IMG/VR virus record: IMGVR_UViG_3300004805_000007 | Location: 1 to 59,908 of that record | Strand: one strand, 5' to 3' | Source: a virus | Taxonomy: Duplodnaviria > Caudoviricetes | Length of the DNA: 59,908 nucleotides | Shown: positions 2,852 through 27,872 of the stretch, one piece after another | Layout of the letters: each line of letters starts with the position of its first letter | How positions within the stretch are numbered: position 1 is the first letter of the stretch | Translations under genes and position numbers: made by a program | Notes under the pieces: generated by a model | Seen by the model: only the letters and a program-made list of their open reading frames with translations | Databases searched by the model: none | What the model was told of the DNA's origin: nothing

Positions 2852-2879
2852 TTGACAACCGGAAAAACTATTGTACACT
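2852..2879 (+). promoter_or_regulatory. sigma70-like promoter for the rightward replication operon
   Basis: TTGACA-N16-TACACT, followed by SD AGAAAGGA and GTG at 2911. Confidence 0.65.
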
Positions 2880-2910
2880 GATCGTACGTTTTAAGAAAGG
2901 ATAACGTAAC

Positions 2911-3255
2911 GTGACCATAAAAACTGACCCCCGTGTGTTTATTGTGCAAGAGATGCCAAATCACGATATTGCTTCGGCAATGTCTTTTGGCGACATGGTT
3001 GTTCTGCTGCCCTTCAATACGCAAATTGCATTCTCCACTGCCCCGGCAGTGCGGATGCTAAAGCGCAAGTTGAGGGGGTATAACAACAATGATTTTCTGC
3101 TCCTGACCGGAGACCCTGTAGCTATCGGTTTAGCCTGTTCGATAGCCGCAGCCTATAACTCAGGCCGATACACTGCGTTAAAGTGGGACCGCCGAGAAAA
3201 GATGTATATTCCCGTCCGTTTGGACATCACCGAGAAAGGAGAGCAAGATGACTGA
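2911..3255 (+). CDS. Conserved phage hypothetical protein (small alpha/beta, possibly CARF/SAVED-like)
   Basis: Good SD; overlaps the next gene; DFLLLTGDP...LKWDR...YIPV pattern. Confidence 0.7.
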   Translation: MTIKTDPRVFIVQEMPNHDIASAMSFGDMVVLLPFNTQIAFSTAPAVRMLKRKLRGYNNNDFLLLTGDPVAIGLACSIAAAYNSGRYTALKWDRREKMYIPVRLDITEKGEQDD

Positions 3256-4597: not shown

Positions 4598-4655
4598 GGG
4601 GGGAAAGCGGATGCCGGTACATCGGCTCTAAGCCATCGGTGCAGCGAGTACCCCC
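4598..4655 (+). ncRNA. Intergenic structured hairpin with a loop-E (GAA/AGUA)-like motif
   Basis: GGGGG/CCCCC closing stem, GAA opposite AGTA, GC-GGA-TGC/GCA-GC helix, apical GGCT-CTA-AGCC hairpin. Confidence 0.5.
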
Positions 4656-4673
4656 ACCTTATAGAGATGCCTG

Positions 4674-12732: not shown

Positions 12733-12735
12733 GCT

Positions 12736-13038: not shown

Positions 13039-13186
13039 CTTGTTTTTCTTTCTGTGGGAATGTTGACGATAAATAACGCACAGCAGTGTCGCCATCTTTA
13101 AGTAGCACCGTTATCGTTGCGGCCTGCAAGTCACTACCGTATATCAGCATCAGTGCTTCCATGATTCTTTGTGTTTCGTTGTTCAT
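13025..13186 (-). CDS. Hypothetical protein
   Basis: Coupled start MNNETQ. Confidence 0.5.
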   Translation of the reverse strand: MNNETQRIMEALMLIYGSDLQAATITVLLKDGDTAVRYLSSTFPQKEKQDDTN

Positions 13187-13407
13187 CACTTCCCCCAAAA
13201 CGCAAAAGCAATCATTGCCACACCAGTCGCCACGCACACCAAAGCAATCAAGCCCTTGACGCTGGCAGCAAGATCATCTATTAAGTCAGGCTCAAGCCCA
13301 TTGTTTCGATTCATAAACGCATCGTTGGCTTCTTGAGCGCGTTGCTTGCGTATAGGGCAATCACGCCCTTGTGTACATTCGCCGTTTGCGTTGCAACAGT
13401 TAGTCAT
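13186..13407 (-). CDS. Small membrane protein with N-terminal Cys motif
   Basis: CC....C.QGRDCP motif and a C-terminal hydrophobic helix. Confidence 0.65.
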   Translation of the reverse strand: MTNCCNANGECTQGRDCPIRKQRAQEANDAFMNRNNGLEPDLIDDLAASVKGLIALVCVATGVAMIAFAFWGK

Positions 13408-13634
13408 TTGGCACGCTCCTTGAGCATGGCCTCTGCCATCTTGTATGCTTCCCTTGCAAGTTCATCGTCGGGCGGTGCGTATTTGCCTGATGTCGCCGCA
13501 TAAGAAAGCAAGCCCCGCAACGCTACCCCCGCAAATTCATCACGCAAAGTTTTGTCCCTTGCAAATCCGCCGGTCTTTACGTGCCAGTCGGTGTATTGTT
13601 TCGCAATCGTTGCATCAATCGTTTCATCTTTCAT
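13404..13634 (-). CDS. Hypothetical phage protein (TLRDxFA family)
   Basis: TLRDEFAG.AL.GLL...AY.MA.AML.ER pattern. Confidence 0.7.
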   Translation of the reverse strand: MKDETIDATIAKQYTDWHVKTGGFARDKTLRDEFAGVALRGLLSYAATSGKYAPPDDELAREAYKMAEAMLKERAK

Positions 13635-13834
13635 TTATATTCCTCCATGCGGGCGTTAAGCCGCTCAATGCGTTTAAGGTTGTAGTCAACTACGCTTTGC
13701 GCATACTCGACTGCCGTTTCAGCTTGGAGCTTGGCCAAGTGACTTTCAGCAAGCTCCTCCGCTATCATCTCCAAAGGGGAAGGCTTGCGAAATGGCTCTT
13801 TAAATAATTCCCGTAACCCGATCTTTCGCATCAT
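13631..13834 (-). CDS. Hypothetical protein
   Basis: SD AGAAAGGA; coupled. Confidence 0.65.
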   Translation of the reverse strand: MMRKIGLRELFKEPFRKPSPLEMIAEELAESHLAKLQAETAVEYAQSVVDYNLKRIERLNARMEEYK

Positions 13835-14004
13835 ATTTTGTATCCTTTCTCAATTCCAAGTTTACGTTTTATCCAATATTTAAACGCCTTAAACCAATTG
13901 GAAGAAACATCATCAAGGCGCTGCTGCAAACGTACGTTTTCTATCAAAGCTTCGGTGTGCAACGATGATATTAAGTAGTACGCCTTTGATTCTGCTGGGG
14001 TCAT
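13831..14004 (-). CDS. Hypothetical 57-aa protein (absent from the ORF track)
   Basis: MTPAESKAYY...KGYKI; ATGA overlaps at both ends fill the gap exactly. Confidence 0.55.
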   Translation of the reverse strand: MTPAESKAYYLISSLHTEALIENVRLQQRLDDVSSNWFKAFKYWIKRKLGIEKGYKI

Positions 14005-14354
14005 GACGTGCCCCCTACCGCCATGTCAGGCAACTCCAACTGGTTAGGATTTACAACTGTTGTTTGCCCATTCATTAACTGCTTATCGCGCTTCTTGGCC
14101 TTGATAGCCTCCTTGTTGGCGTGGTAATACTTGCGGGCATACTCACGCTGGCGCTCCAACTTGGCCGCTTTTTCAAAGTCTTCACGCGAATCGTTGGCCT
14201 TCTTGTCAAGAATCAAGGCCTGCAACATCCCTGCATGGACGGCCACTGTGTTTCTAGCCTGTCTCAAAGTGCCTTCAAGAATAGAGAGTCGAGTCTCAAG
14301 GACCTCGACTCGCGCCAATAGGTTGGCATCCTGTTTAAAATTAAAAAAACTCAT
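14001..14354 (-). CDS. Hypothetical protein
   Basis: Start moved to MSFFNF after GGAG; basic REYARKYY helix. Confidence 0.6.
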   Translation of the reverse strand: MSFFNFKQDANLLARVEVLETRLSILEGTLRQARNTVAVHAGMLQALILDKKANDSREDFEKAAKLERQREYARKYYHANKEAIKAKKRDKQLMNGQTTVVNPNQLELPDMAVGGTS

Positions 14355-14435
14355 TTCACTATTCTCCAAGAATCTTTCACGGCATTCGCAAAGGACCATC
14401 CCTTGCGCCTGAACATGAAATACAAACGAACAAAA

Positions 14436-14744
14436 TTACGCATGGTCTAAATCTCCTCCATACTGCTCAGCGCAGCTTTCGCACACGTAGCAGGAATACA
14501 GGTCCACGCCCCACGAATCGCGGATCGTGGACTGCTTATGGTTCATGTAGTGGCATTCGGGACACTCAGTGGCCTCGTAGACCTCCAACTGCTCATCCGT
14601 AGCCTTGACTTCGGGGTACGTACTCTTAAATTCGTCCTTGGCATCAGCCTCGTTGTCAGCAAGAACCAAAACCGAATACGAACCCTCAGGAATTTCCAGC
14701 AATACTATGTACCAAGTCGGGGAAGGGAAGCGGGTATCAGTCAT
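14436..14744 (-). CDS. Hypothetical zinc-ribbon protein
   Basis: CPEC...CESC. Confidence 0.6.
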   Translation of the reverse strand: MTDTRFPSPTWYIVLLEIPEGSYSVLVLADNEADAKDEFKSTYPEVKATDEQLEVYEATECPECHYMNHKQSTIRDSWGVDLYSCYVCESCAEQYGGDLDHA

Positions 14745-15063
14745 CCTGGCCCCCTGCTACGACTTCTTGGATCGTGACCTCGTAGTCGCCGTTACCACTA
14801 TGTTCCTCGTAGAACTTGTCCCACGCCTCTTGCTCGTCCTGCGCAAAGATCTGCACTTCACCATGCTCCTTGGACCAAAACAGGTATTCCTTGTCCCTGT
14901 CTTCTTCGGTTTCAAAGCGGGTATGCAGCGCCTCGTACCTACGCTGCTCTTCCCGTTGGCGCTCCTCCCGCTCTAACTGCTCAGGGGGTATGGCCCGAAA
15001 GGCCGCAACCTTCTGAGCTACTTCCTCGTTGATAAGGTCTCCCATGTTGCTTACTTTATTCAT
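14737..15063 (-). CDS. Hypothetical acidic protein
   Basis: Start moved to MNKVSN after AAGGAG. Confidence 0.6.
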   Translation of the reverse strand: MNKVSNMGDLINEEVAQKVAAFRAIPPEQLEREERQREEQRRYEALHTRFETEEDRDKEYLFWSKEHGEVQIFAQDEQEAWDKFYEEHSGNGDYEVTIQEVVAGGQDD

Positions 15064-15313
15064 CAAAATCTCCTTCGGGCTCGTCGCCCATAGTGTCAAA
15101 AGCGATCTCAGCACACTGCTCAATGTCTCGGATCGTGGAGTAGGACAGGATGTCCATAATCTCAACCTTGTTTGCCTTTACGCTGCTCAATGTCAACACG
15201 CCGGGGTCGGCAGGCTCGTCAAAGGTCGCTGGCGTAGCAGGCTCGTAATACAACTCGCAATCCAAAGAGCGAATCGGGCCGGTCAAAGCGTATAAGTAGT
15301 TCAAATATGGCAT
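15056..15313 (-). CDS. Hypothetical protein
   Basis: Start MPYLNY directly after the upstream stop. Confidence 0.55.
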   Translation of the reverse strand: MPYLNYLYALTGPIRSLDCELYYEPATPATFDEPADPGVLTLSSVKANKVEIMDILSYSTIRDIEQCAEIAFDTMGDEPEGDFDE

Positions 15314-15314
15314 G

Positions 15315-15533
15315 TCAGTCCACCACGTTGTAGTAGTTTTCAAGCTGTATGAAGATGTCAAAAAAGTCCTCTTCAGACAACAAAGTGATCACTTCTAACG
15401 CCTCGCGGCCCACGACGACTTTTACCGAAGTTATACGCGCAGAACCACTGTCATCGTTACCATAATGCACCTCTATGGGTAACTTTAGCGTTAAGTCAGC
15501 TATGCTAGTGTGTTTAGGTATCATTGATGTCAT
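15315..15533 (-). CDS. Hypothetical protein, first gene of the leftward operon
   Basis: SD AGAAAGGATAG (15538-15548, minus strand) and a TAGAAT -10-like box at 15593-15598. Confidence 0.6.
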   Translation of the reverse strand: MTSMIPKHTSIADLTLKLPIEVHYGNDDSGSARITSVKVVVGREALEVITLLSEEDFFDIFIQLENYYNVVD

Positions 15534-15649
15534 TTCTCTATCCTTTCTAAGTTTATGACGATTAAAGGGTTTTGGGCCGTTGCCCGAGGCTTATTCTACC
15601 TTAGTTTGCCTTACAAACACCCTTAGTTTTGGGTGTCAATTGTAGAAAT

Positions 15650-15950
15650 TGATACTAGGGTTTACCCTTAGAGATTTGGCTTATATGCCCAAATACATAT
15701 AAAGAATGGGCTTTTATATGTATTTGGAGGGGTCCCTATAGAGTTTTTCCAAAGAAAAAAGATTTTGTTTTTATTTTCGTGGAATTAGGCGTAATGACGT
15801 AATTGGTGTAATAAGTGATATAAATCAATAGGTTATCTCATTACAGTGAGATCAGGGGTAGTGTGATGGTGTAATTTACTGGGGGGTCCCTACGTTTAAA
15901 AAAAAAAATTTCCATTTTTATTTTCTGATGAAAAAACTCTATAGGGAGGC
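15650..15950. other. AT-rich non-coding region with inverted and direct repeats and an IHF-consensus site (candidate origin or packaging site)
   Basis: 15-bp IR 15689-15703/15713-15727; 16-bp IR 15733-15748/15932-15947; GTAAT repeats; AATCAATAGGTTA at 15823-15835. Confidence 0.5.
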
Positions 15951-16026
15951 CTCTGGAAGTGCCCCTTGCTTTCCTGCCTTACATGAGTTAAACTATCGTT
16001 ATCCTTGTTTCGATAGGCTTAATGAA

Positions 16027-16254
16027 ATGCTACTCCCAGACCTACAAATTGACCCCGATATCCCCGTTCCTAGGGGAAGGACGCTGTACCCTTTCCGTGA
16101 GATGGAAGTAGGCGATAGCATCTTCTTTGCTGAGCTGGCTAAGGGCACGTCCGCTAGGGTGGCTTCTAGCCATTTCTGCAAGACGCATGAGCCCACTTGG
16201 CACTTCACCCTTCGCAAAGTGGATAAAGGCTTTCGCCTGTGGAGGACAGCATGA
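16027..16254 (+). CDS. Small hypothetical protein (YPF..MEVGDSF-like pattern)
   Basis: IPVP...YPFREMEVGDSIF...FRLWR; ATGA-coupled to terS. Confidence 0.65.
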   Translation: MLLPDLQIDPDIPVPRGRTLYPFREMEVGDSIFFAELAKGTSARVASSHFCKTHEPTWHFTLRKVDKGFRLWRTA

Positions 16255-16919
16255 CACGTAAGGACGTTTGGAACGTACCTCCGGTTGTGCCGGACAAGGC
16301 CAAGCAGCGCATGGCTGGGGTAGTTGTGCCCCTGCGTCAGCAGCGCAAAGTGCTCAATGAAAAAGAATGGAAGTTTGTGCAGGAGTACGTTTCCGGTGAC
16401 GGGCGGGTGACCCTGAAGGAAGCTGCCATCCGTGCAGGCTACAAGGAGGGCTCTGCAAGCGTCATGGCGTGGAAGCTGACCAACCCCAAGGAGTACCCCC
16501 ACGTAGTGGCTGCAATACAGGCCTACAGGGCTGAATTGGCCTCCAAGTACAACACCAGCTATGAGCGGCACATGATGGACCTGCAAATCATCCGCGACAA
16601 GGCGTTGGCCGCTGGGGCCTTCTCGGCTGCCGTGGCTGCGGAATACCGGCGCGGACAGGCGCTAGGGACCATTTATGTCGAGCGCAAGGAAATCAGGCAC
16701 GGCACCATCGACAGCATGAGCAAGGAGGAAGTACAGCACCAGCTAGACGAACTCAAGCGCTTGTATGGCGGACCCCCTCCCACTGCCTTGATTGACGCTG
16801 ATACCGGTCAAGTCATGGACAGCATGGCCAAGCAGGCAGATCCGGCCTTCGACGCAGGCGTACCGGAGCCGCCTCTCGACATTTTTGAGATGGACCATGG
16901 CGACGACACCGGAAAGTAA
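16251..16919 (+). CDS. terS: Terminase small subunit
   Basis: L..KE.KFV.EY...EAAIRAGY...A..L..P.V...I HTH pattern typical of TerS. Confidence 0.75.
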   Translation: MTRKDVWNVPPVVPDKAKQRMAGVVVPLRQQRKVLNEKEWKFVQEYVSGDGRVTLKEAAIRAGYKEGSASVMAWKLTNPKEYPHVVAAIQAYRAELASKYNTSYERHMMDLQIIRDKALAAGAFSAAVAAEYRRGQALGTIYVERKEIRHGTIDSMSKEEVQHQLDELKRLYGGPPPTALIDADTGQVMDSMAKQADPAFDAGVPEPPLDIFEMDHGDDTGK

Positions 16920-17322
16920 ATTCGCGCAGCGCGTGCGGGCTTCCCTTGGCTGCTGTGACATTGAGCGCATAGAGAATCGCGTAAATCTTGGTGTGCCTGA
17001 CATGCTGGTCGGCGTTGATTCTCGGTTTGTCATGGTCGAGCTAAAGGTCGTTACCAGTGGCCTGAAGGTCGCGCTGCGGTCCCATCAAGTGGCATTTGCT
17101 ACTCGGCACACGGCTGCGGGCAGGCCTTCTTTTGTGCTGGTCAAACGGGACGGCGGCGCGGCCAGTAGTCAATCGGCTGTCCCGCCTGATTCCATTGCCT
17201 TGTACAAGGGCGCGGCTGCAATTGAGCTATACCAGCAAGGGCTGCGCCTTGCGCCCTTGGCGTGGTGGCCTTCGCGTACCATGAACTGGTCAGAATTGCG
17301 AAAGCTATTGGCAACCGAATAG
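16897..17322 (+). CDS. VRR-NUC/Holliday-junction-resolvase-like PD-(D/E)xK nuclease
   Basis: PESKF, RIEN...GVPD...VELKV and HQ motifs. Confidence 0.75.
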   Translation: MATTPESKFAQRVRASLGCCDIERIENRVNLGVPDMLVGVDSRFVMVELKVVTSGLKVALRSHQVAFATRHTAAGRPSFVLVKRDGGAASSQSAVPPDSIALYKGAAAIELYQQGLRLAPLAWWPSRTMNWSELRKLLATE

Positions 17323-17323
17323 C

Positions 17324-17420
17324 AATAGAAAAATGCAATCGGCGGGACGCTAAAACCCGATTACAATGGTGCACCGGCATAGATTAGCTGGTACTGTTAA
17401 ACCCAAGAAAGGATAGAGAG
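17324..17420 (+). promoter_or_regulatory. Expression cassette 1 (17-bp box, -10, hairpin, SD)
   Basis: AATAG-N7-CAATC, N21, TACAAT, ACCGGC/GCTGGT stem, AGAAAGGATAG. Confidence 0.7.
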
Positions 17421-17654
17421 ATGAAAACCGCAAAAGAGATAGAAGCTTTTGTTGAGGCGTACGGCCAATGCATGGGCTATGAAAGCAAAGCAAATGTCGA
17501 GACCATTGCTCTCATGTTGTCGATGGACTACGACGAGGAAAAAATATCGGAGCGTTTTTGCGAAAGCCGCACGGTAATTGACGCATACATTTTGTGGAAC
17601 CATGCTATGGGCTTTGGCGCTATGTATTGGAAGGAAGGGGCAAAAAATGTTTAA
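17421..17654 (+). CDS. Hypothetical protein
   Basis: Strong SD; follows cassette 1. Confidence 0.65.
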   Translation: MKTAKEIEAFVEAYGQCMGYESKANVETIALMLSMDYDEEKISERFCESRTVIDAYILWNHAMGFGAMYWKEGAKNV

Positions 17655-18015
17655 TGTTTATAACCATAATCACACCCTGCTCGGATCATTCGACACCAAG
17701 CACGCTGCCGACAGCGAAGCCGCTTTTTATATTGAGCAGACGGGTAATGCCGCCTTTGTTCACGAAGGGCCTAACCCCGTAAGCATTCACCGCCAGCACC
17801 CCAAGCCGCGCCAGCGCGTGAAATTCGTTGTTTGCTACCCTAGCACCCGCACTGCTGTCGCTGCTTTCGATACTCTCAAAGCCGCCCGTCATCATGCGGA
17901 AAATATGGTGATATATGGTTTTCCGTGGGATTTTCCGGCACGCACTGCGATACCTATTATCTCCCGTGAAACCATAGAAAAATACAATCAAAGGACAGCG
18001 ACAGCTATTGCATAA
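17647..18015 (+). CDS. Hypothetical protein
   Basis: Coupled start MFNVYN; the 3' end runs into cassette 2. Confidence 0.55.
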   Translation: MFNVYNHNHTLLGSFDTKHAADSEAAFYIEQTGNAAFVHEGPNPVSIHRQHPKPRQRVKFVVCYPSTRTAVAAFDTLKAARHHAENMVIYGFPWDFPARTAIPIISRETIEKYNQRTATAIA

Positions 18016-18060
18016 TCAACCCATGCCGGAATAGTCCGGCACAACAGAAAGGATAGCATC
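17973..18060 (+). promoter_or_regulatory. Expression cassette 2
   Basis: CATAG-N7-CAATC, N21, CATAAT, TGCCGGA-ATAG-TCCGGCA, AGAAAGGATAG. Confidence 0.7.
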
Positions 18061-18759
18061 ATGTTAAAAACAGTAGCAATTAGCGGAAACAGCAAAACGG
18101 GCCCTATAGCGGTAACTTACCGCGCAGGCGAACACGAGACATATGGCACTTGCCCGAAGACATGCAAGCTTCACCCGAAAAGCGAAACCGGCACGGATCA
18201 AATCGACAGCGAATATATGCAGGCGGTTTATGACGCTGTACCCCGTGGCGGCTTGGCGTGGGCTTACAGTCACTTTCAGGCGGAAGCTTTGCCACTGCCT
18301 GCCGAAGGGAAAACGACATTCAATGCGAGCTGTGACACTATGCAGGACGCTGCGCGGGCCGTTGAGCTTGGAAGGCCTGCCGTGTATGCTGCACCATATG
18401 ACAGCGCCGAACAATGGCCTAAAAAATTCCACGGGATAAGCTTTGTTCGATGCCCTGCCGAATTGTCCGATTCGTTTACATGCCACCAGTGCGGGAATGG
18501 TTCCCCCTTATGCGCACGTGGAAACCGCGATTTTGTTGTGGTGTTTGTCGGCCATGGCACGGGTAAAAAGAAAGTAGGCACCGATGCCGAAGGCGGCTGC
18601 TACGCTGCATCGGGACCGACAGCGATTCAGTGGCACGCTACTAAAAAGAAGGGCGCGGCCAATGATGCGCAGGCAGTGCGGGATTTTGCGCAGCGCTTGC
18701 CGCACCGCTCAATGTTGCGCCACCATATCGCAGGCGATATCGGGAGGGCTACTGCATGA
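18061..18759 (+). CDS. Cys-rich conserved phage protein (possibly Fe-S/radical-SAM-derived)
   Basis: NSKTGP, TCPKTC, CPA..TCHQC..LC, GCYA..GP and RHHIAGD motifs. Confidence 0.7.
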   Translation: MLKTVAISGNSKTGPIAVTYRAGEHETYGTCPKTCKLHPKSETGTDQIDSEYMQAVYDAVPRGGLAWAYSHFQAEALPLPAEGKTTFNASCDTMQDAARAVELGRPAVYAAPYDSAEQWPKKFHGISFVRCPAELSDSFTCHQCGNGSPLCARGNRDFVVVFVGHGTGKKKVGTDAEGGCYAASGPTAIQWHATKKKGAANDAQAVRDFAQRLPHRSMLRHHIAGDIGRATA

Positions 18760-18824
18760 TCATGGCATTCGTGGCCCTTGGGGTCATCATAGCCCTAGGC
18801 TGGCTACTTGATAAATTCGATTGA
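18756..18824 (+). CDS. 22-aa hydrophobic peptide
   Basis: MIMAFVALGVIIALGWLLDKFD; ATGA overlap; GGGAGG upstream. Confidence 0.4.
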   Translation: MIMAFVALGVIIALGWLLDKFD

Positions 18825-18917
18825 AAAATTCAATCGGCAGGCAGTGAATATTCCCCTTATAATTCAGTACCGGCACAAATTAACCGGTACTTTTTAAACT
18901 CTACAGAAAGAATAGTT
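18819..18917 (+). promoter_or_regulatory. Expression cassette 3
   Basis: GATTG-N7-CAATC, N22, TATAAT, AGTACCGG/CCGGTACT, AGAAAGAATAG. Confidence 0.75.
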
Positions 18918-19898
18918 ATGGCACATATGATCGACACCACTACCGGCACAGCCGCAATTGCTTACGCTGGTAAAACCCCATGGCACGGCCTAGGGCAGGC
19001 ACTAACCCCCGATGCTTCAATCGATACGTGGACACGCGAAGCCGGTTTGGCCTATGACGTGCTGGAATCTCCCGTATTGTTCCGCACTGCTGCGGCCACC
19101 GAGCCGGAAGCTTTCAAGGGCCGCAAAGTATTGCACCGCAGCGATACCGGCGCGCCCTTGGCCGTAGTGTCTGACGGATACCACGTAGTCCAGCCCGCGC
19201 AAATAATGGGGTTCTTTTCTGACTTAGTAGCGCTAGGCGGTTTTCAATTGGAAACAGCCGGAGCCCTTAGCTTTGGCCGTAGGGTTTGGGCGCTGGCATC
19301 CGTGGGTGACGCTGCACCGGTTATTGACGGCGATATGGTCAAGCCCTACCTATTGCTGGGCACGTCATATGATGGAACAATGGCCACAGTGGCCAAATTC
19401 ACCGCTATTCGCGTGGTTTGCAATAACACAATCACAGCAGCAGTAGGCGGCGAAGCCGACACCGAAAAGGGCTATTTGAAAAGTGCAATTCGCGTGCTGC
19501 ATAGTGAGCGCTTCGACGCTGACGCTGTCCGCTTGCAATTGGGAATCGTGGCGAATCAATTCGAGCGCTTTTTAGTGCAAAGCCGCCAATTGGCAGGCGT
19601 GCCAATGACCACCACCGAAGCCGATGCATTTGTGGCCGAATTGCTCAAGCCTTACCACCAAGGGAAAACCGCTGTCACCGATAGCCGCGCATACAAGCGA
19701 ATTATTCAATTATTCGAAGGCGCGGCCATTGGTTCGGATATCGACGGGGTTACCGGCACGCGCTGGGGAATGCTTAACGCTGTCACCGAATTGGTGGACC
19801 ATGAGCGCGGACGCAGCGACAATACCCGCCTTGAATCGGCATGGTTTGGCACCGGCAGCGCCCTAAAAAATCGAGCCGTGGAATTGCTGGCCGCTTAA
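18918..19898 (+). CDS. DUF932-family phage/plasmid protein
   Basis: MAH...TPWHGLG, RSDT..PL.VVS..Y.VVQ, ETAG.L..GRRVW.LA, RVVCNNT, GTRWG.LNAVTE.VDH and SAWFG motifs. Confidence 0.88.
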   Translation: MAHMIDTTTGTAAIAYAGKTPWHGLGQALTPDASIDTWTREAGLAYDVLESPVLFRTAAATEPEAFKGRKVLHRSDTGAPLAVVSDGYHVVQPAQIMGFFSDLVALGGFQLETAGALSFGRRVWALASVGDAAPVIDGDMVKPYLLLGTSYDGTMATVAKFTAIRVVCNNTITAAVGGEADTEKGYLKSAIRVLHSERFDADAVRLQLGIVANQFERFLVQSRQLAGVPMTTTEADAFVAELLKPYHQGKTAVTDSRAYKRIIQLFEGAAIGSDIDGVTGTRWGMLNAVTELVDHERGRSDNTRLESAWFGTGSALKNRAVELLAA

Positions 19899-19909
19899 CG
19901 ATAGCGTAA

Positions 19910-19957
19910 CGCTGGCGTATTTCCCCCGTAAAAAGGGAAAATACGCTGGCGCTTTTT
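19910..19957 (+). terminator. Probable intrinsic terminator after the DUF932 gene
   Basis: CGCTGGCGTATTT.../...AAATACGCTGGCG stem followed by CTTTTT. Confidence 0.55.
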
Positions 19958-20068
19958 CGGTTGTTTTTAATATCGTAAACCTGCCCTCGAGCCGCGCACC
20001 GACAGCGAATAAAAATGCACCACGGGCCGCGCTCCGTGGTCCGTGGCACGCGCTTCGCGTGCCACGCT

Positions 20069-20125
20069 CAAAGCTTCGCGGCCCGCGCCCGAAGGGCTGG
20101 CGCAGCCAAGGGCCGCGAAGCTTTG
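20069..20125. repeat. Y-shaped palindrome 1
   Basis: 16-bp perfect stem enclosing GCCC-GAA-GGGC and TGGC-GCA-GCCA. Confidence 0.85.
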
Positions 20126-20148
20126 TTATCTATCGGTGGGGCTGGTTT

Positions 20149-20240
20149 GATTGATAAATACAATCGGGGCTGGGGCTGGTATGCCCCTATAATGTAGCTA
20201 TGCCATCGGCCGATGGCATACAACCTAGAAAGGATATTTT
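20149..20240 (+). promoter_or_regulatory. Expression cassette 4
   Basis: GATTG-N7-CAATC, N22, TATAAT, 22-bp palindrome TATGCCATCGGCCGATGGCATA, AGAAAGGATA. Confidence 0.75.
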
Positions 20241-20687
20241 ATGGGCTTAGATATGTATCTCAATGCGCGCAGCAGCGTCAATGCTTATGACGATGCCGAA
20301 CAAATGGAATTGGAAAAAGTGCCGTTTATCGCGGCCGCTGGTATGCGGGTAAGTGGGATTACTTACCGCGCTATGTACTGGCGCAAAGCAAATGCCATTC
20401 ACAAATGGTTTGTGGATAACGTGCAAGATGGCGTGGACAATTGCGATTCGTATGTTGTGGAAAAAGAGCACTTGCAGGCGCTGCGCGACACTTGCCAGCA
20501 AGTGCTGGACGATAACGCTTTGGCTGGGGAGCTGTTGCCGCCCAGTGCCGGATTCTTTTTTGGCACCACCGATATCACCGATTATTATTTTGACGATTTG
20601 CGCGACACTGTAGAGGCGCTGGATAAGGCGCTGGCATTCGCGCAGCGCGACAGGTGGTCAACATTTACTTATCAGTCCAGCTGGTAG
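20241..20687 (+). CDS. Conserved phage hypothetical protein
   Basis: MGLDMYL...YWRKANAIHKWFV...LLP...GFFFG...YQSSW pattern. Confidence 0.8.
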   Translation: MGLDMYLNARSSVNAYDDAEQMELEKVPFIAAAGMRVSGITYRAMYWRKANAIHKWFVDNVQDGVDNCDSYVVEKEHLQALRDTCQQVLDDNALAGELLPPSAGFFFGTTDITDYYFDDLRDTVEALDKALAFAQRDRWSTFTYQSSW

Positions 20688-20713
20688 CGGTATGCTATCG
20701 GGGCTCACGCCCC

Positions 20714-20807
20714 GATAGATAAAATTGTGTAGCGCAGCCGCCCTGCTGGGGTATACTTACCCCAGCCCCCAGCAGGGCTACATTATCAACTTAGAAAGGA
20801 TAGCATC
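20714..20807 (+). promoter_or_regulatory. Expression cassette 5 (degenerate right half-site)
   Basis: GATAG-N7-TGTGT, N21, TATACT, GC-rich inverted repeats, AGAAAGGATAG. Confidence 0.6.
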
Positions 20808-21269
20808 ATGAAAACCCAAGGCACTAAACTCTCCACGTACGTGAACAACATGTTCGCAACATGCGAGGACATGGAAACAGCATTGACCCAAGCCGCCAAT
20901 ATTGCAGGCGGCGCGGACAACGCAGCGGCAGTGCACACTGCCGTTCATATGGTTTTGAATACGGCCATAAAATTGCATCAGGCAGACATGGCCAAGGCTA
21001 ACGCGCCGCTGCTCGAGCTAATTGAATCGGAGATTCAAAAGTCTTTCACCGTGGTGCAGAATAGCATCGAGCACGCGCTCGATGCCTTTGATCGAAAGGT
21101 GGACGAGAAAATTGAATCGGCCATTGAAGATCTGGATATTGAGGGCCAGATTGAGAACGCGATTGATAACATAGATTTGGAGACACAAGTGCAAGATTAC
21201 ATGTCAAGTAATCCAATCGATGTACAGGATTTATTGAGCGGCGCAAACGTATCAATCACATTTGATTGA
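20808..21269 (+). CDS. Hypothetical helical protein with acidic C-terminal repeats
   Basis: IESAIEDLDIEGQIENAIDNIDLE repeats; strong SD. Confidence 0.7.
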   Translation: MKTQGTKLSTYVNNMFATCEDMETALTQAANIAGGADNAAAVHTAVHMVLNTAIKLHQADMAKANAPLLELIESEIQKSFTVVQNSIEHALDAFDRKVDEKIESAIEDLDIEGQIENAIDNIDLETQVQDYMSSNPIDVQDLLSGANVSITFD

Positions 21270-21332
21270 TGGTATAATTCACCTACCGGATCCGCCGGAT
21301 CCGGTATCAACCAACCTAGAAAGAATAGCATC
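21251..21332 (+). promoter_or_regulatory. Expression cassette 6 (everted box)
   Basis: ATCAATCA-CATT-TGATTGAT, TATAAT at 21273, TACCGGATCC-GCC-GGATCCGGTA, AGAAAGAATAG. Confidence 0.7.
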
Positions 21333-21614
21333 ATGAAGACTCGTATACTAAACCTCGGATGGGATTGCAAACTGGTAATACCTGAGAGCGTTTCTTCCAA
21401 AGACTTGCAAGCGCTTATCGGGTTTATCGGCACGCTGCGCAAGACTTCTGCGCATGGCAACTTCGCTGGCCCTGACTTCTCATACGCCAGCAACTTCGCT
21501 GGCGTACAACTTGAGGAAGTAGATCTACACTCAGAGGCGGATGCCAAGCGCTTGAGCGAAGAAAGCAAAGCAGCGTATAAGGCACGCGAAGCAATGGAAA
21601 AAGCAGCAGCGTAA
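21333..21614 (+). CDS. Hypothetical protein
   Basis: Strong SD; followed by a terminator. Confidence 0.65.
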   Translation: MKTRILNLGWDCKLVIPESVSSKDLQALIGFIGTLRKTSAHGNFAGPDFSYASNFAGVQLEEVDLHSEADAKRLSEESKAAYKAREAMEKAAA

Positions 21615-21646
21615 CCCCGAACTGGGCCCGTGGGCCCAGTTACCCT

Positions 21647-21675
21647 AAGCGGCCCAGTCGGGCCGCTTTTCTTTT
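21647..21675 (+). terminator. Intrinsic terminator
   Basis: AAGCGGCCC-AGTC-GGGCCGCTT followed by TTCTTTT; a second hairpin precedes it at 21620-21641. Confidence 0.85.
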
Positions 21676-21823
21676 GCCTGTGCGCAGCGCCCCAGTTCGT
21701 GCACCTGGCCTATTCCCAAAAAAGCCTTATAAATCAAGCACTTACGCGATGCTTGCCAAATGTAATAGAGTCGCTTTAATGATTTCCAATAACGCAATAT
21801 AAATTGGTAAGCATTACCCAATA

Positions 21824-21956
21824 GCTATGGGCGGCATGCCGCCCATAGCCTAAGCCTATCCCCCTATCGCGCACCGCGCCCCATAGCCGCAGGCTATGGG
21901 CTGTGGCCCTCCCTTGCCCGTTAGGGCCCCATGCGTGGCATGGGGGGAGGGCCACA
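21824..21956. repeat. Palindrome cluster including Y-shaped palindrome 2
   Basis: 26-bp perfect palindrome 21824-21849; CCCATAGCC-GCA-GGCTATGGG; 12-bp stem 21902-21913/21945-21956 with two ears. Confidence 0.85.
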
Positions 21957-22089
21957 AAGGTACCGTCAGCTTCAGCGCCAGCTTCGCCTCTGTTTTACAC
22001 CTGCACAACGGTATCTAGGACTTACGGAACCCACCCCCTTATTTTTAAAAAGGCAAGGGTGGGGGTATACTAAAAAAATTCAGAACTTT

Positions 22090-23571
22090 ATGAGTCTGCC
22101 CATGAGCCTCGCTCCACCGTCCGATGTAGAACACAAACGCCTCTTGCTAGAGCTGCGCCTCCAGCAAATCGATATCCGCGCTAAAGCATCCAATGAATTC
22201 CTAGAATTCTGTCGTTACGTCTGGCCGGAGATCATCATTGGTGAACACCACCGGCGTATCGCCAAGGCCCTTGATCGTGTAATCGAGGGCAAGTGCAAGC
22301 GGTTGATGGTTGCCATGCCCCCGCGCCACGGCAAGTCACAGATGGGCAGCTATCTGTTCCCCGCCTATCTGATGGGCAAGCTCCCTGCTTCTAAGCTTAT
22401 TGTTGGATCTCACACTGCCGAGTTGGCTCAGCGCTTTGGCCGGATGATCAGGAACCTTGTTGACGAGGACAAGTACAAGGAACTCTTCCCCGGCGTGGGC
22501 CTATCTGCTGACAGCAAGGCTGCTGGTCGGTGGAACACGAAGGGTGGTGGAGAAGCCTATTTCATTGGTAAGGGTGGCGCGATGACCGGGCGCGGCGGAG
22601 ACATTGTGATCTTGGACGATATCTTGGACGAGCAGGATGCTTTGTCAGAAACGGCTATGGAGAATACGTGGGAGTGGTATACCTCTGGCCCCCGTCAGCG
22701 GCTCCAGCCCAACGGCACGATCATCGTGATCAATACCCGTTGGAAGACCGATGACCTTACAGGACGCTTACTAAAGCAGCAGGGGCAGTTAAAGTCTGAT
22801 CAGTGGGAGATATTGGAATTTCCTGCCATTCTTCCTTCTGGCCGCGCTCTTTGGCCCGAGTATTGGAGCATAGATGAGCTAGAAAAGGTAAAAGTCAGCA
22901 TTGGCCTGAAGAAGTGGAACGCCCAGTGGCAGCAGCAGCCCACCAATGATGAGGGCGCTATTTTGAAGCGCGACTGGTGGCGCAAGTGGACGTATGATGA
23001 GCCCCCGGCCTGTGAGTACATTATCCAGTCGTACGATACGGCGTACTCCAAGAAGGAGACGGCGGACTACTCTGTTATCTCGACGTGGGGCGTATTCACT
23101 CCCAATGCCGACTCGGGGCCCAATCTCATCTTGCTCAACGTCAAGCGCGGGCGCTGGGATTTCCCTGAGCTTAAGCGCGTTGCGCGGGCCGAGTACCTTT
23201 ATTGGAATCCCGATAACGTCTTGATAGAGGCCAAGGCCACCGGAACGCCACTCCAGCAGGAACTCCGCAAGATAGGAATTCCTGTGACTATGTACTCCCC
23301 TGGTGGGCGGCGCACGGGCCAAGACAAGATATCCCGCGCCAATGCGGTAGCCCCTTTGTTGGAGTCGGGAATGATTTGGTATCCGCCTGATTTGGAGTGG
23401 GCACAAGAGATGGTGGAGGAGTGCGCTGCGTTTCCTAATGGCTCACATGATGATCAGGTGGATTCTGCTGTGATGGCTTGGAGCCGGTTCAGGGCTGGCA
23501 ACTTTATTGCTTTGGACTCGGACGAGAAAGATCCAGAATATGCAGACAGCGCGGTGATGGAGTACTATTGA
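22090..23571 (+). CDS. terL: Terminase large subunit
   Basis: MPPRHGKS Walker A, ILDD Walker B, TRW, nuclease domain SYDTA..ADYS and HDDQVDS; start moved downstream of the palindromes. Confidence 0.93.
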   Translation: MSLPMSLAPPSDVEHKRLLLELRLQQIDIRAKASNEFLEFCRYVWPEIIIGEHHRRIAKALDRVIEGKCKRLMVAMPPRHGKSQMGSYLFPAYLMGKLPASKLIVGSHTAELAQRFGRMIRNLVDEDKYKELFPGVGLSADSKAAGRWNTKGGGEAYFIGKGGAMTGRGGDIVILDDILDEQDALSETAMENTWEWYTSGPRQRLQPNGTIIVINTRWKTDDLTGRLLKQQGQLKSDQWEILEFPAILPSGRALWPEYWSIDELEKVKVSIGLKKWNAQWQQQPTNDEGAILKRDWWRKWTYDEPPACEYIIQSYDTAYSKKETADYSVISTWGVFTPNADSGPNLILLNVKRGRWDFPELKRVARAEYLYWNPDNVLIEAKATGTPLQQELRKIGIPVTMYSPGGRRTGQDKISRANAVAPLLESGMIWYPPDLEWAQEMVEECAAFPNGSHDDQVDSAVMAWSRFRAGNFIALDSDEKDPEYADSAVMEYY

Positions 23572-23636: not shown

Positions 23637-26600
23637 ATGGCTAACCCATCAGATCAAGAATTCATCAACCGCATCATGGATGCGGAAAGCAGTGGCCGTA
23701 GGTATGATAAGAATGGCAAGCTGCTGCAAGGTCCAAGGACCAAGCATGGTACTGCCAAGGGTGAGATGCAGGTTATCGATAAGACCAATCTTGATCCCGG
23801 CTTTGGGGTAACCCCGGCCAAGAACAAGTCTCCTGATGAGCGGGCCCGGGTGGGCAAGGATTATGCGCAGGCGATGTTGGATCGGTATGACAAGGATCGG
23901 CAAATTGCTGCCATGGCTTACAACTGGGGTCCGGGCAACGTGGACAAGTGGGTTGCTGGGGGAAAGAAAGGCGCTATCCCCGAGGAGACAGCAAATTATG
24001 TTGTCAGGGTGACGGGCTCCCCAATACAAACAGCCAAAAAGGCAGAGCCTACTCCTTCTTTCGCTGCCGCCGCCCCCGCTCCAGCAGCCACCGCTGGCGC
24101 TCCCAAACCTCCGGCTACGCCTCCTGTGAGGAAGGCAGAGGCTGCGCCGACCGAGGATATCAAATCGAGGATCGCGGCCCTCGGACCAAACTACCATGCC
24201 GCTATGGCGCTGTCCTATCTTGCAGACAACACCGATGAGGATGATCCGACGATACAGGCGTACAGGGAGCGCAATGAAGGCGGCAGTGATTGGTTGAGTC
24301 AGGAGTCAGCCCCTGTTGCTTTGGCCAGCGTGGACCTCAAAGCAAGCAGCCCGTTCCAAGAACCGGTGACCGCTGCCCGGGGTGGGTTGATCCATCGTGC
24401 GGGTGGATCGCCTGAGGAGGGAGAAGAAATTGCCAGTGATAGCGATACCATGGCAAGCAACACTGATCCTGAGACAGGTCGGGTTGTTACCACAAAGTAT
24501 GGTGAACAAACCCCGGTCTATTCTTTCCAAGGAAAAGATTACCCCGCTGCGCAAGGTGCTAATCTACCACCGTCACGTTCTAAGCAGGCTCTTGAGGCTT
24601 ATGTACAAGCAATGGTTCCTGATGCAAATGTACGGGAAAAATACCCTCTCAGTGATTCGGTCAGAGGATTTATAAGTCGGAAAGATCCCAGCACAATTAA
24701 TTTAAGTCCTATCCTTTCCCCCGGCTCACGCGAAGAAACTATGCTGCATGAAGCCGAGCATTCAATGGATGCCCGGGGTGGGGATTTGCTTGGTCGGCCA
24801 AATATTAAAGGCATGGACAACAACTACCGGGCGTATTACCTGATGGGAAGCCGGTGGGCCCCTATCAACATGACGGTTAAGAACATTGTGGACAACAAGG
24901 ATGAACTGGAACAGTTCTTTGGCCGTCCGTTAGACAACTCGTATTTCAGAAAAGAAACGTATACCAATGTTGCCAAGGATGGCGATCCGTCTGCTTTGTT
25001 TTCTGAACAGTTGGCAACTTTGTCGGCTTTGGAGCGGCAAACGGGAAAGTTTTTGACGCACGACCCTAAGATGCGTGAACTGATTTTCCCGTCAAACCCT
25101 TTGTACAACAACACCAGCATGATGGCGGTGTACGATGCGCTGACCGGGCCGCGCCAGACTCGCATGGATGCGCGGGACATGCCTCCCCATACCCCTGTTC
25201 CTTCTTACTTGTATGAAGAGCCGGGATCCATGACCCGTTTCTTTCGCAAGCACACAACTGGCCCAAATGAATACGGTATTCCCATCAAACGCGCCGATGG
25301 CTCCCCCGAGGAAGGGGAAGGTTCTCCTGAGTATTCTTTTATGGGGGTTCCTCGCACGGACAATGAGCATAAGCTTTACCCTAAAACCGAGCGCATGAAC
25401 CCTGTTGTCAAGGCGGTAAAGTCGGGAGTGGACACTTTCAACCGTTTTATTGATAGCGGACCATCAGTAGGTAACGTGGTAGGTGACGTAGTGGGGGCCA
25501 TACCTTTTGTTGGCCCAGACCTACGTAAAAGCATGGAAGAGTCCACCGTTACTTTGCCTACGAGGTATACACGTTCTCCCACAAATCCAAACGTGGCAGT
25601 AGGTGTTGAAACTTCTAAGGTTCCTGTAACTGACGCATTAAACAGCGTAAAGATGTCCGACCTTGTTGGCGGAACGGGAGTGAGCAATGTTCTGGGCAGT
25701 GTTGGCAAAGGGTATGCGCCTTCCCCGCTGGATGTTTTGGACACCGTAGGTGCTGGCGCTGTCGGCTACAAAGCGGCCAAGGCGGGTGTAAAAACTGCCA
25801 AAAAAGCTTCTGACATGTTGAAAGAATTAAAAACTCCAGCGCAAGTGGCCGCTAACATTGAGCCTGCACTGGATGCAGCAACTCCCGCCGCCGCATCCCT
25901 TTCTGCTATGGCTACCCAAAGGGGAGCTACGCCCACCCCATTTTTTAGCCCTTTGGATGCATACGCTCAAACGCTAACAGGCCCCGTTACCCCGGCTGAG
26001 TTTATTAAGCAAGTACAGAACAAGGGTTTCCGTGCATACGAGGTAGAGCGGGCAAAAGAAGCCATGCAAAAACTAGGCACGGGCCAAGTTTCTCGTTCCC
26101 AGATTTTGGATTCATTAGACGAAACTTACCATCCTGAAAACTTTATCACCAAAGTTGCAGAACCGGGAACCGTTGGATACACCCACCCCGAGGTAGATAA
26201 CGTGTTCAACGGAAGATACCCTTCTGATCCAGCGCTTTCGTGGACTATGGTCAATGGGAGAGGCAAAAGCCCTCCACAAGGCGTAATAAGCTTGCATCTT
26301 CCAGTTACGGATCAAATGCGGGAAGCTAGGCAAGTACAAATTGCTTTAGAAAACTTAAGAAGTTATAAATTGAGTTTAATCAACCCCAGTGTTACATCTA
26401 ACTCCGTAATGACATCAGCGGAAAAAGCAGCCAGTTTGATAGCGGATGTCCATGGGCAACGCAGTGAAGAAGCCCTTGATGCCATGGAATCTGTAGATCT
26501 TATACGCCGGAAACAAGAACAAATTGTTCCTTACTTAGAGCAAATTCCTGAATACTTAAAATTACAACAAGAATTTAAATATCCCATGGCAAAAGCAGAT

Positions 26601-27863: not shown

Positions 27864-27872
27864 GGACAGAAT

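Follow-up and report, generated by a model that had tools for sequence, protein, structure and literature searches.

A repeated promoter, 5' hairpin and leader cassette between terS and terL in an uncultured freshwater phage: a putative relative in function of the stem-loop cassettes of T4-type phages

Here we describe an array of six repeated expression cassettes in IMG/VR virus record IMGVR_UViG_3300004805_000007, a phage genome (Duplodnaviria; Caudoviricetes) whose 59,908 bases, the whole of the record, were analysed as a single window (completeness rated 97%). The array lies on the plus strand within a rightward block that begins at 15928, between a terS-like gene (16239-16919, +; a weak match) and terL (21931-23571, +). 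Each cassette combines a -10 hexamer, usually a GC-rich hairpin near the predicted transcription start, and a nearly invariant ribosome-binding leader. By linking motif spacing, hairpin covariation, and cargo turnover across related loci, we suggest that the array is probably a working equivalent of the promoter and stem-loop (PeSL) cassettes of T4-type phages, which host RNA polymerase would read.

Methods

Related loci were collected by a TerL-based scan of IMG/VR, which returned 208 stretches; the best 80 of these (73-97% identity) were taken with at most 8 kb of flanking sequence, given labels of the L001 type and, with the window, make up a set of 81 sequences. The marine relative 023Pt_psg01, in which gene order around terL differs, was left out of the comparison. 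Five complete relatives (G001-G005) were analysed in addition.

The exact leader heads 253 gene starts in the window and the 80 loci; 226 of these have unique upstream sequence (207 on the TerL strand) and were treated as cassettes. Promoter profiles were built from the 147 of these 226 that could be anchored on a -10 of at least 5 bits located 22-62 nt before the leader, the other 79 being left out. Anchoring on the best -10 replaced a position weight matrix pick of sigma70 promoters over the whole 130 nt upstream, which was too noisy.

Results

Composition of the array

The leaders, AGAAAGRATA, begin at 17406, 18046, 18905, 20227, 20793, and 21318 (+), and the -10 hexamers at 17362 (TACAAT), 18011 (CATAAT), 18858 (TATAAT), 20188 (TATAAT), 20752 (TATACT), and 21273 (TATAAT). 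Four boxes (17324-17340, 17973-17989, 18819-18835, and 20149-20165, +) and a half-box (20714-20730) precede the first five hexamers. A first-pass annotation, made from the window alone, had described this region as six modular cassettes with a palindromic box near -42, a -10, a hairpin at +1, and a common Shine-Dalgarno (SD) leader, and had proposed that they form an activator-controlled regulon of swappable host-takeover genes. Boxes, half-box, hexamers, and leaders were all found where that annotation placed them, well above chance, and the box-to--10 distance it gave as 21-22 nt was measured as 21, 21, 22, 22, and 21 nt in cassettes 1-5. The description as repeated modules, each with a -10, a hairpin at the predicted start, and a common leader, likewise held.

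Cassette 1 (17324..17415, +) carries TCGGCG (17339-17344) at the -35 position and a -10 at 17362-17367, with a predicted start at A 17373, a weak hairpin (17373-17392), the SD (17406-17415), and an ATG at 17421; genes 17421-17654 and 17647-18015 follow. In cassette 2 (17973..18055, +) the box lies within the coding end of the latter gene (codons T-I-E-K-Y-N) and the -10 (18011-18016) overlaps its stop; the predicted start, A 18023, is followed by a hairpin at 18024-18041 (z -4.41), the SD (18046-18055), and the ATG (18061) of a DUF7227 gene (18061-18759). Cassette 3 (18819..18914, +) has a -35 TCGGCA at 18834-18839 (4/6, spacer 18), a -10 at 18858-18863, a hairpin at 18866-18891 running into a T-run (z -4.98), the SD at 18905-18914, and the ATG (18918) of a DUF932/TIGR03299 gene (18918-19898).

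The box of cassette 4 (20149..20236, +) is a perfect dyad. Its -10 (20188-20193) and predicted start (A 20200) are followed by a hairpin at 20199-20220 with a GGCC loop (z -2.93), the SD (20227-20236), and the ATG (20241) of gene 20241-20687. Cassette 5 (20695..20802, +) opens with an upstream hairpin (20695-20718, CTATCG...CGATAG, z -4.94), the 3' arm of which starts the half-box; a further hairpin (20740-20778) encloses the -10 (20752-20757), and the SD (20793-20802) and ATG (20808) of gene 20808-21269 follow. Cassette 6 (21253..21327, +) has an extended -10 (TGG and TATAAT, 21270-21278), a predicted start at A 21285, a hairpin at 21284-21306 (z -5.51), the SD at 21318-21327, and the ATG (21333) of gene 21333-21614. 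The everted half-sites previously noted in cassette 6 are present as letters (CAATC 21253-21257 and GATTG 21264-21268), but they are the last codons and stop (S-I-T-F-D-stop) of gene 20808-21269 and are absent from L006, L007, L009, and L010.

The common leader

The leader sequence AGAAAGRATA occurs 10 times in the window against 0.18 copies expected, and 0 of 100 shuffles reached 10. Besides the six cassette copies, which bear out the near-identical SD reported after each -10, three head other units (2894 +, 13850 -, 15548 -) and one lies at 5518; six of the nine gene-associated copies fall within 17.3-21.3 kb. The tenth copy (5518-5527) lies inside the primase gene, where no start codon follows; it probably reflects conservation of the coding sequence and is not a cassette. 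G001 has a pair of leader sites at nearly the window's spacing (2632 vs 2624 nt). The five complete relatives hold 10, 9, 7, 4, and 2 leaders, with 0 in controls read backwards. Leaders are clustered in G001 (7 of 10) and G002 (6 of 9) within one stretch of 3.3-3.5 kb, four of the seven in G003 lie at both ends of a record with terminal repeats, and G004 and G005 have too few to show clustering.

Across the 226 cassettes the leader consensus is CAACYY-AGAAAGGATA-GAG-NN-ATG, with an ATG start in 222 and a gap of 5 nt in 140; its uniform form is AGAAAGGATAG with the ATG 5 nt later. The leader core AGAAAGGA is the reverse complement of a pyrimidine tail of the type found at many bacterial 16S rRNA ends. 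When starts were gathered with a looser anchor (GAAAGG, ATG, and an open reading frame [ORF]), ATAG continued the motif in at least 197 of 231 starts, and operon-internal genes of the same phage use AAGGAG or TAGGAG-type sites. The leader is therefore a distinct and specifically conserved class of site, conserved beyond what pairing with rRNA needs.

Promoter signals

In the anchored profile (n=147), positions -44 to -39 are A-rich, A reaching 57-65% at each of -43 to -41, and T is enriched at -36/-35. Nucleotides 6-8 after the -10 are C (53%), A (61%), and C (61%), the usual pyrimidine-purine start with CA approximately 7 nt downstream. A -35 matching at least 4/6 at a spacer of 16-18 nt is present in 62 of the 147 cassettes (42%, compared to 13% in mononucleotide shuffles), one matching at least 5/6 in 23 (16% vs 2%), and 52 have TGn directly before the -10, the background frequency of TG being 6.7%. 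An A-rich hexamer at most 14 nt upstream of the -35 position is found in 65%, 74%, and 61% of cassettes with -35 matches of at least 5, of 4, and of at most 3, respectively, compared to 25% of shuffles. The A-rich element is hence equally frequent with good and poor -35 hexamers, unlike the expectation for a site that replaces the -35. An expectation-maximisation motif search returned a degenerate CGATWGAAAAAAT..AAT motif in two distance classes from the -10 (40-42 and 50-51 nt). The outgroup DSL-LC04 has the same layout, with TTGACA-17-TACATT, a hairpin, and a repeated leader of its own. Taken across relatives, the module reads as a host sigma70-type promoter with -35, TGn, CA start, and A-tract.

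In the window itself, no full -35 match stands at normal spacing, as had been reported, but partial matches of 2-4/6 do occur there: TCGGCG at 17 nt (3/6) in cassette 1, TCAAAG at 17 nt (2/6 by eye; the script chose ATCAAA at 18 nt, 3/6) in cassette 2, TCGGCA at 18 nt (4/6, also the pick of the promoter scan) in cassette 3, and TCGGGG at 18 nt (2/6) in cassette 4.

The upstream box

The exact box pattern ATWGAWAAANNCAATC occurs four times forward in the window, 0 times in reverse, and 0 times in a backwards-read control. CAATC-N21/22-YAYAAT occurs five times against 0.25 expected; four of these are the cassettes and the remaining one, on the minus strand at 5766-5797, looks like chance. The position of the box near -42 stood (its centre is at approximately -43 in all four), but its palindromic character did so only in part, given that the dyad is perfect only in boxes 3 and 4, that the arms of boxes 1 and 2 agree at 3/5, and that the dyad of box 4 is broken in both L006 and L007.

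Alignment with orthologous cassettes points to a composite origin. In the DUF932 cassettes of L012, L014, L015, L018, and L020, ...AATTCAA is followed by TTGACC, 16 nt, and TAAAAT or TAGAAT; in the window, ...AATTCAA is followed by TCGGCA, 18 nt, and TATAAT. The right arm CAATC is thereby seen to be CAA plus the first two bases of a decayed -35. Cassettes before the gene of cluster c3 (clusters are defined below) in L066, L067, and L073 likewise carry AAAAATAG or AAAAATAT ahead of TTGACA, 17 nt, and TATAAT, with TTGACG in the same frame in L017 and TTGACA, 18 nt, TAAAAT in L012. The left arm, GATWG, has a separate source in each cassette: it lies after the stop codon of the upstream gene in box 1 and in upstream coding sequence in box 2, is the Asp-stop (GAT TGA) of a 22-aa ORF in box 3, and is the 3' arm of the upstream hairpin in cassette 5. 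The stops of ORFs 16792-17322, 18756-18824, and 20808-21269 fall within or beside the box region, and the upstream CTATCG...CGATAG hairpin is a minority feature (18 of 147 cassettes).

Scanning relatives, a test proposed with the first-pass annotation, found no family-wide palindrome. Over 942,380 bases, the exact palindrome is limited to DUF932-cassette orthologues in 3 of the 80 loci; the strict box occurs 9 times forward and 0 in reverse, and the relaxed form GAWAAANNCAAT 34 times forward and 5 in reverse. In IMG/VR, the exact palindrome was found at at least 113 loci (mean GC content 0.39), among which 12 have YAnnnT at 21-22 nt and 4, all close relatives of the window, have a cassette context; there is thus no sign among these loci of a site common to other phage groups. 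The box is not known to fit the consensus sites of Fis, IHF, ArgR, Fur, Lrp, FNR/CRP, or NtcA.

What is conserved over the relatives is the A-tract at approximately -45 to -41 and not the arms. Counted from the predicted starts, the A-tracts of boxes 1-4 lie at -44/-40, -45/-41, -45/-41, and -46/-42, which places them, on these starts, in the interval of a proximal UP-element subsite (approximately -46 to -38, key positions -41 to -43); adenines at -41 to -43 are described as critical in the proximal subsite of rrnB P1 (PMC4390567). The box is, judged on these alignments, more likely to be mainly an A-rich upstream promoter element than an activator site.

Hairpins after the -10

The GC-rich hairpin described just after each -10 was found in cassettes 2, 3, 4, and 6, all of which are significant (z -4.4, -5.0, -2.9, and -5.5, respectively), but that of cassette 1 is not, and the sequence taken for such a hairpin in cassette 5 forms the 3' arm of the 12-bp hairpin at 20740-20778 (-27.2 kcal/mol, z -4.3), with the -10 in its loop. 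The arms of this last hairpin covary in L005 and L007. In relatives, the region from the -10 to the leader has a median z of -3.0 (66% with z < -2), and the first paired base is mostly 4-7 nt past the -10. Hairpins with at least five contiguous pairs were present in 119 of 147 cassettes, with 72 distinct 5' arms and 61 tetraloops, 21 of them AGCC. Tetraloops of AGCC, GGCC, and AGCG types dominate, in window cassettes 4 and 6 as in relatives, while stems vary freely.

In 19 c3 cassettes orthologous to cassette 6, seven of eight pairs show compensatory double changes, and 97.9% of hairpin cells pair; shuffles give 68.7%, and sliding the partner lowers the value to 18-40%. Since entire hairpins could have been swapped, these changes are not independent events. 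Among 93 distinct hairpins, internal G:T mismatches outnumber A:C by 19 to 2, which indicates that the hairpins act in sense-strand RNA; such an asymmetry would not be expected of a cruciform in DNA, of a palindrome to which protein binds, or of a hairpin in the template strand. Among DUF932 cassettes, 13 of 27 have a U-run after the hairpin, compared to 0 of 108 elsewhere, and the hairpins outside DUF932 cassettes are therefore not ordinary terminators. The U-run after the DUF932-cassette hairpin (18866-18896 in the window, and in relatives) looks like a DUF932-specific leader attenuator. RNase III sites were considered and rejected, stems of 5-11 bp being too short.

Cargo and exchange between cassettes

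Clustering of the 236 leader-led ORFs in the 81 sequences gives 54 clusters. Two of these, the DUF7227 gene (c1) and the DUF932/TIGR03299 gene (c0), hold their positions, and c2 and c3 often do so; the slots before c1 and between c0 and c2 are occupied by different small ORFans from contig to contig. L007 lacks window positions 20184-20745, the breaks lying in the promoter 4 spacer just after the box and in the promoter 5 spacer. With breakpoints in both spacers, a single hybrid promoter would drive c2 in that locus. In L006, a different promoter and hairpin precede the same c3 gene. Over nine pairwise comparisons, 13 of 35 internal ends of homology blocks lie between -110 and +25 of a leader, an interval comprising approximately 17% of the sequence; this count was made by hand, the pairs are related by descent and hence not independent, and in any mosaic phage such ends tend towards gene boundaries. 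The suggestion that cargo swaps at cassette borders was thus borne out, both by 54 clusters behind one leader and by the L007 indel, which runs from spacer to spacer.

Cargo in the window consists of the DUF7227 gene, the DUF932/TIGR03299 gene, and ORFans, which support the label of host-takeover genes neither way. A study on DUF932 (bioRxiv 10.1101/2025.06.20.660599) concerns a host plasmid gene and has no bearing on this phage.

Neighbouring features and genome context

Two terminator-like structures stand apart from the cassette hairpins: a hairpin and T-run (19910..19960, +) after the DUF932 gene, and two tandem hairpins (21620..21678, +), the second with a T-run (z -4.13), which close the array ahead of terL. 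Between the former and cassette 4 lies a GC-rich stretch of approximately 170 nt with several long hairpins (19976-20148), which is common only to L006 and L007 and has no Rfam match; the region 19896-20150 folds at -125 kcal/mol (z -6.25). A hydrophobic 22-aa ORF (18756-18824, +, MIMAFVALGVIIALGWLLDKFD) shares the letters ATGA with the stop of the DUF7227 gene; L006, L007, and L009 retain its C-terminal codons, and it may encode a small membrane peptide. Rfam (gathering scores) and ARAGORN gave no match over the whole window, and megablast of 17000-22000 against GenBank phages gave none.

Two leader-bearing promoters elsewhere in the window lack the box. TTGACA-16-TACACT (2853..2913, +) is followed by the common leader (2894-2903) and a GTG at 2911, has no 5' hairpin, and heads the replication operon (2911-9811, +), which encodes Pam3 gp32-34-like proteins, an AEP primase, a UvrD-type helicase, and a family A DNA polymerase. 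A leftward early cassette (15540..15640, -) has TTGACA (15634-15639 in plus coordinates), a TAGAAT -10 candidate, a small hairpin, and the common leader (15539-15548) before the ATG of gene 15315-15533 (-). It belongs to a leftward block of approximately 16 small ORFans (10221-15533, -). In or beside the divergent early intergenic region, an approximately 17-nt motif ending in CTATAGGGA forms an inverted pair (15731-15752, -; 15931-15950, +), the plus copy lying inside ORF 15928-16254; the CTATAGGGA core is present in 19 of the 80 related loci, and the pair could be an origin, an operator, or a packaging site. The motif resembles the core around the initiation site in promoters of T7-group phages, but no gene for an RNA polymerase was found among the ORFs scanned.

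Downstream of terL lie a 1408-aa SLT-domain protein, portal, capsid, SU10-type adaptors, and tail genes. The 1408-aa ORF (23637-27863) has an N-terminal SLT lytic transglycosylase as its sole assigned domain, and GC content is 0.418 in 26-28 kb (26001-28000), compared to approximately 0.52 elsewhere in the window. Two paralogous SU10-type adaptors (37179-37853 and 38185-38838; PF24175, E 4e-16 and 2e-24) suggest an SU10-like podovirus tail. Three consecutive ORFs of 640, 936, and 1138 aa (50877-59032) have no Pfam or PHROG family; the nearest named Atlas clusters of the 1138-aa and 936-aa products are P22 gp16-like (0.95) and injection-translocase (0.80) ejection proteins, which we treat as leads only. 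By TerL, the nearest named phages are DSL-LC04 (60% identity) and the Pelagibacter phages HTVC027P and HTVC023P (52-54%). DSL-LC04 is a metagenome-assembled, uncultured lake phage, the host of which is given as Pseudomonadota by computational prediction only (PMC10611076). No T4 core genes were seen in the annotated ORFs of this genome of approximately 60 kb, and among approximately 70 ORFs scanned there was no RNA polymerase, sigma factor, or recognisable transcription regulator; the lone hint of a regulator is a sub-threshold MarR_2 match (E 0.0028) on ORF 10221-10493 (-).

Discussion

A proposed self-contained module read by host RNA polymerase

What the sequences show directly are the motifs with their spacing and statistics, the covariation and strand asymmetry of the hairpins, the turnover of cargo, and a single indel from promoter to promoter. 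On these grounds we hold it probable, with appreciable room for doubt, that the region is a PeSL-like array of promoter, 5' hairpin, and leader cassettes run by host RNA polymerase. Each module would be self-contained for transcription and translation, its reader being host RNA polymerase with a primary, sigma70-type sigma factor. The A-tract at approximately -45 to -41, at the position of the UP proximal subsite, would be contacted by the alpha subunit's C-terminal domain and would make up for a weak -35, its flanks being the remains of a -35 on the right and the end of a preceding ORF or hairpin on the left. RNA would start at the CA approximately 7 nt past the -10 and open with the GC-rich stem-loop, which most likely shields the 5' end from decay; stabilisation of this kind would be the main role of the hairpins. 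The same stem-loop in read-through RNA may insulate neighbouring units, a second role that appears clearest in cassette 5. After a G-poor CAACYY linker, the AGAAAGGATAG leader, with the ATG 5 nt on, would give strong translation. Modules of this design would head one- or two-gene accessory units between terS and terL, presumably early in infection, and their shared ends would form the borders, and probably the recombination substrates, for gain, loss, and replacement of cargo.

Several findings weigh against this interpretation. The shuffles run by our scripts were mononucleotide shuffles, and since the cassette set was gathered by the exact leader, statements about the leader are partly circular (the loose-anchor count was used separately). 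In 85 of the 147 cassettes the -35 matches at 3/6 or fewer, and 57, window cassettes 1, 2, 4, and 5 among them, lack both a 4/6 -35 and TGn; promoters of this sort frequently require assistance. Consensus -35 promoters without the box in the same genome (2853 +; 15634 -) give the look of two promoter classes. The strict box with its 21-nt spacing is found again in L060 and L070, at 73% TerL identity, the 16-nt box shows tighter conservation than is needed for known UP elements, and in the DUF932 cassette of L009 it stands 32 nt, not 22, before the -10. Hairpin 1 is not significant (z -0.41; 56 of 200 shuffles fold as well), and the cassette 5 hairpin, since it encloses the -10, would occur in read-through RNA only, outside its own transcript.

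Alternative explanations

Some of these same findings would follow if an activator, whether a factor of the host or an early protein of the phage that has escaped recognition, bound the box at approximately -43 and replaced the -35 contact, with cassettes 1-5 forming a delayed class. The central placement of the box, the perfect 5-bp dyads of boxes 3 and 4, the 21-22 nt that separate all four boxes from the -10, the lack of a 4/6 -35 and of TGn in cassettes 1, 2, 4, and 5, and the recurrence of the strict box at the same spacing in L060 and L070 all fit such a model, and box-less consensus -35 promoters heading the replication and leftward early operons are what two temporal classes predict. 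A precedent exists in phage Mu, the Pm promoter of which lacks a -35 and carries a 16-bp element, centred at -43.5, that contains a pair of inverted repeats of 5 bp (Ma and Howe 2015, PMC4390567); with its recognisable -10 and poor -35, the Pm/Mor system is the closest known match to the activator model of the first-pass annotation. A binding protein could be sought among the approximately 16 unannotated small early ORFs, one of which carries the sub-threshold MarR_2 match mentioned above. We nevertheless consider this model rather unlikely. The dyad is not conserved even in the closest relatives, the exact palindrome is confined to DUF932 cassettes in which the left arm is coding sequence and a stop, cassette context holds for only 4, all close relatives, of at least 113 listed palindrome loci, and the L009 spacing is 32 nt. 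The core that is kept family-wide is an A-tract, whereas the spacer of the Mor site is G/C-rich with the alpha-subunit contact further upstream, and the same upstream element stands beside consensus -35 hexamers in orthologous cassettes. A six-frame search of the whole record for PF08765 (Mor) gave no match at E <=1, and no helix-turn-helix or sigma family exceeded threshold in the approximately 70 ORFs; the first-pass remark that no obvious phage-encoded activator lies nearby agrees with this. The dimeric class II site and the possible regulon under a host transcription factor that were proposed alongside it draw no support from a conserved core that is an A-tract, arms that are -35 remnants and upstream ORF or hairpin ends, and an A-rich element independent of -35 quality.

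Other explanations turn on the RNA. The stem-loops might chiefly terminate or attenuate upstream transcription and not stabilise their own mRNA, an option to which we give limited credence, no more than to an activator. A PeSL stem-loop is reported to cut lacZ expression as much as a strong terminator (PMC2839356), the covarying 12-bp hairpin of cassette 5 would form in read-through RNA only, and U-runs are present in 13 of 27 DUF932 cassettes; however, U-runs are missing from all 108 other cassettes, most hairpins start at the predicted +1 where 5'-end protection would place them, and clear U-run terminators occupy positions of their own, behind the DUF932 gene and where the array closes. Alternatively, the 5' hairpin, often with an AGCC-type tetraloop, and the GAAAGGATAG leader could together be an RNA operator for a trans-acting RNA-binding protein or nuclease that switches the whole accessory set on or off post-transcriptionally. 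This would be compatible with the promoter reading and would account for ATAG after GAAAGG in at least 197 of 231 loose-anchor starts when operon-internal sites differ, for the ATG in 222 of 226 and 5-nt spacing in 140 of 226 cassettes, and for tetraloops in 61 of 119 hairpins (21 AGCC); the same option was left open by the authors of the Cluster K start-associated sequences (PMC3203893). It is nonetheless doubtful, the least probable but one of the explanations listed here, in that no candidate factor was found, leaders could stay alike with no trans factor at all if cassettes recombine repeatedly, the same loop is by no means common to all hairpins, and the TAG of the leader may merely stop upstream reading frames. 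Only slightly less doubtful, and still improbable, is a co-regulated system in the broad sense, with an unrecognised factor that reads either the 16-17-nt box in DNA or the hairpin and GAAAGGATAG leader in RNA and with cassette ends that double as cargo recombination sites. Finally, the hairpins might be DNA promoters for a virion-carried, N4-like RNA polymerase, the -10-like hexamers being incidental. The three large ORFs at 50877-59032 without a Pfam or PHROG family leave room for such an enzyme, and hairpins are the most constant structural feature just upstream of leaders, but we regard this as highly improbable: -10, -35, TGn, and CA are enriched at fixed distances upstream of the hairpins, the 19-to-2 G:T excess is on the sense strand and would leave mismatches on the template strand, the Atlas leads for the 1138-aa and 936-aa ORFs are ejection-protein families (0.95 and 0.80), and no RNA polymerase family matched in the scanned ORFs.

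Relation to known systems

The array of self-contained promoter modules that we favour compares most directly with PeSLs. Each of these is described as joining an AT-rich stretch that holds a stop codon to a sigma70-like promoter, a variably placed stem-loop, and an SD with its start codon (Arbiol et al. 2010, PMC2839356); they are located in hyperplastic regions before ORFans and mediate modular shuffling (PMC2839356; Comeau et al. 2014, PMC4122927). The same composite parts are found here, namely a sigma70-like promoter, AT-rich upstream sequence with stops, a stem-loop, and, at the 3' end, the SD with its start codon. The cassettes likewise concentrate in a hyperplastic stretch that precedes ORFans, and both systems show insertions, deletions, and replacements between close relatives. 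One PeSL subclass has its stem-loop downstream of the -10 and others overlap the -10, as in cassette 5. The genome, however, is not that of a T4-type myovirus, as shown by its TerL kinship to DSL-LC04, HTVC027P, and HTVC023P and its SU10-type adaptors. With PeSL parts in a lineage of another type, the array appears to work like PeSLs but falls outside the described set. It further differs in that the stem-loop is usually at the first transcript nucleotides and mostly without a U-run, in its near-invariant 11-mer leader, and, in the window lineage, in a decayed -35 with a fixed upstream 16-17-mer. Promoter, terminator, and mini-circle functions of PeSLs have been shown experimentally, whereas the cassettes here are predicted from sequence. 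In the literature passages searched on PeSLs, DSL-LC04, and HTVC023P, no such cassettes are described for this phage group.

The leader recalls the start-associated sequences (SAS) and extended start-associated sequences (ESAS) of Cluster K mycobacteriophages (Pope et al. 2011, PMC3203893). Like the leader, these are asymmetric motifs with a ribosome-binding-site core just before the start, in one orientation and with ATG strongly preferred; they are restricted to non-structural genes, of different families, and are conserved beyond 16S pairing. About half of the SAS have an inverted repeat just upstream. Their 13-bp consensus is unlike AGAAAGGATAG and the host phylum differs, so that the two resemble each other in function only. 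Evidence for RNA hairpins in ESAS was judged slight by its authors, whereas compensatory changes are abundant here, and SAS are not described in that paper as part of a promoter module.

The A-tract resembles the UP proximal subsite, and the A-tracts of strong promoters (PMC4390567), in lying directly upstream of the -35 position, at approximately -45 to -41, with good and poor -35 hexamers alike; the UP consensus does not include the conserved flanks GATWG and CAAT seen here. Early promoters of coliphages also make use of A-tracts that lie upstream of the -35. 5'-terminal stem-loops of the type found in the ompA 5' untranslated region stabilise bacterial mRNAs, and the hairpins described here share with them a stable stem and 0-2 unpaired nt at the 5' end, the 5' ends here being predicted.

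Conclusions

Mobile promoter and stem-loop cassettes have been worked out mainly in T4-like phages, and start-associated leaders are known from one mycobacteriophage cluster. Both features are joined here in an unrelated, abundant, and wholly uncultured clade, represented by 208 IMG/VR stretches with a close TerL. If co-regulation were true, it would provide one switch for dozens of interchangeable accessory genes in this uncultured freshwater clade, and the array would be a promoter-carrying counterpart of an integron without an integrase. Irrespective of this, the leader and hairpin offer a sequence handle for finding the clade's variable accessory genes in metagenomes, with DUF7227 and DUF932 as fixed members; the cassettes provide a compact promoter, 5' untranslated region, and ribosome-binding-site part as a candidate for use in proteobacterial hosts; and the related loci form a natural data set on loss of the -35 while an upstream A-tract persists. 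Taken together, the array suggests that cassette-bounded hyperplastic regions may be a general and convergent route by which lytic phages trial new genes.

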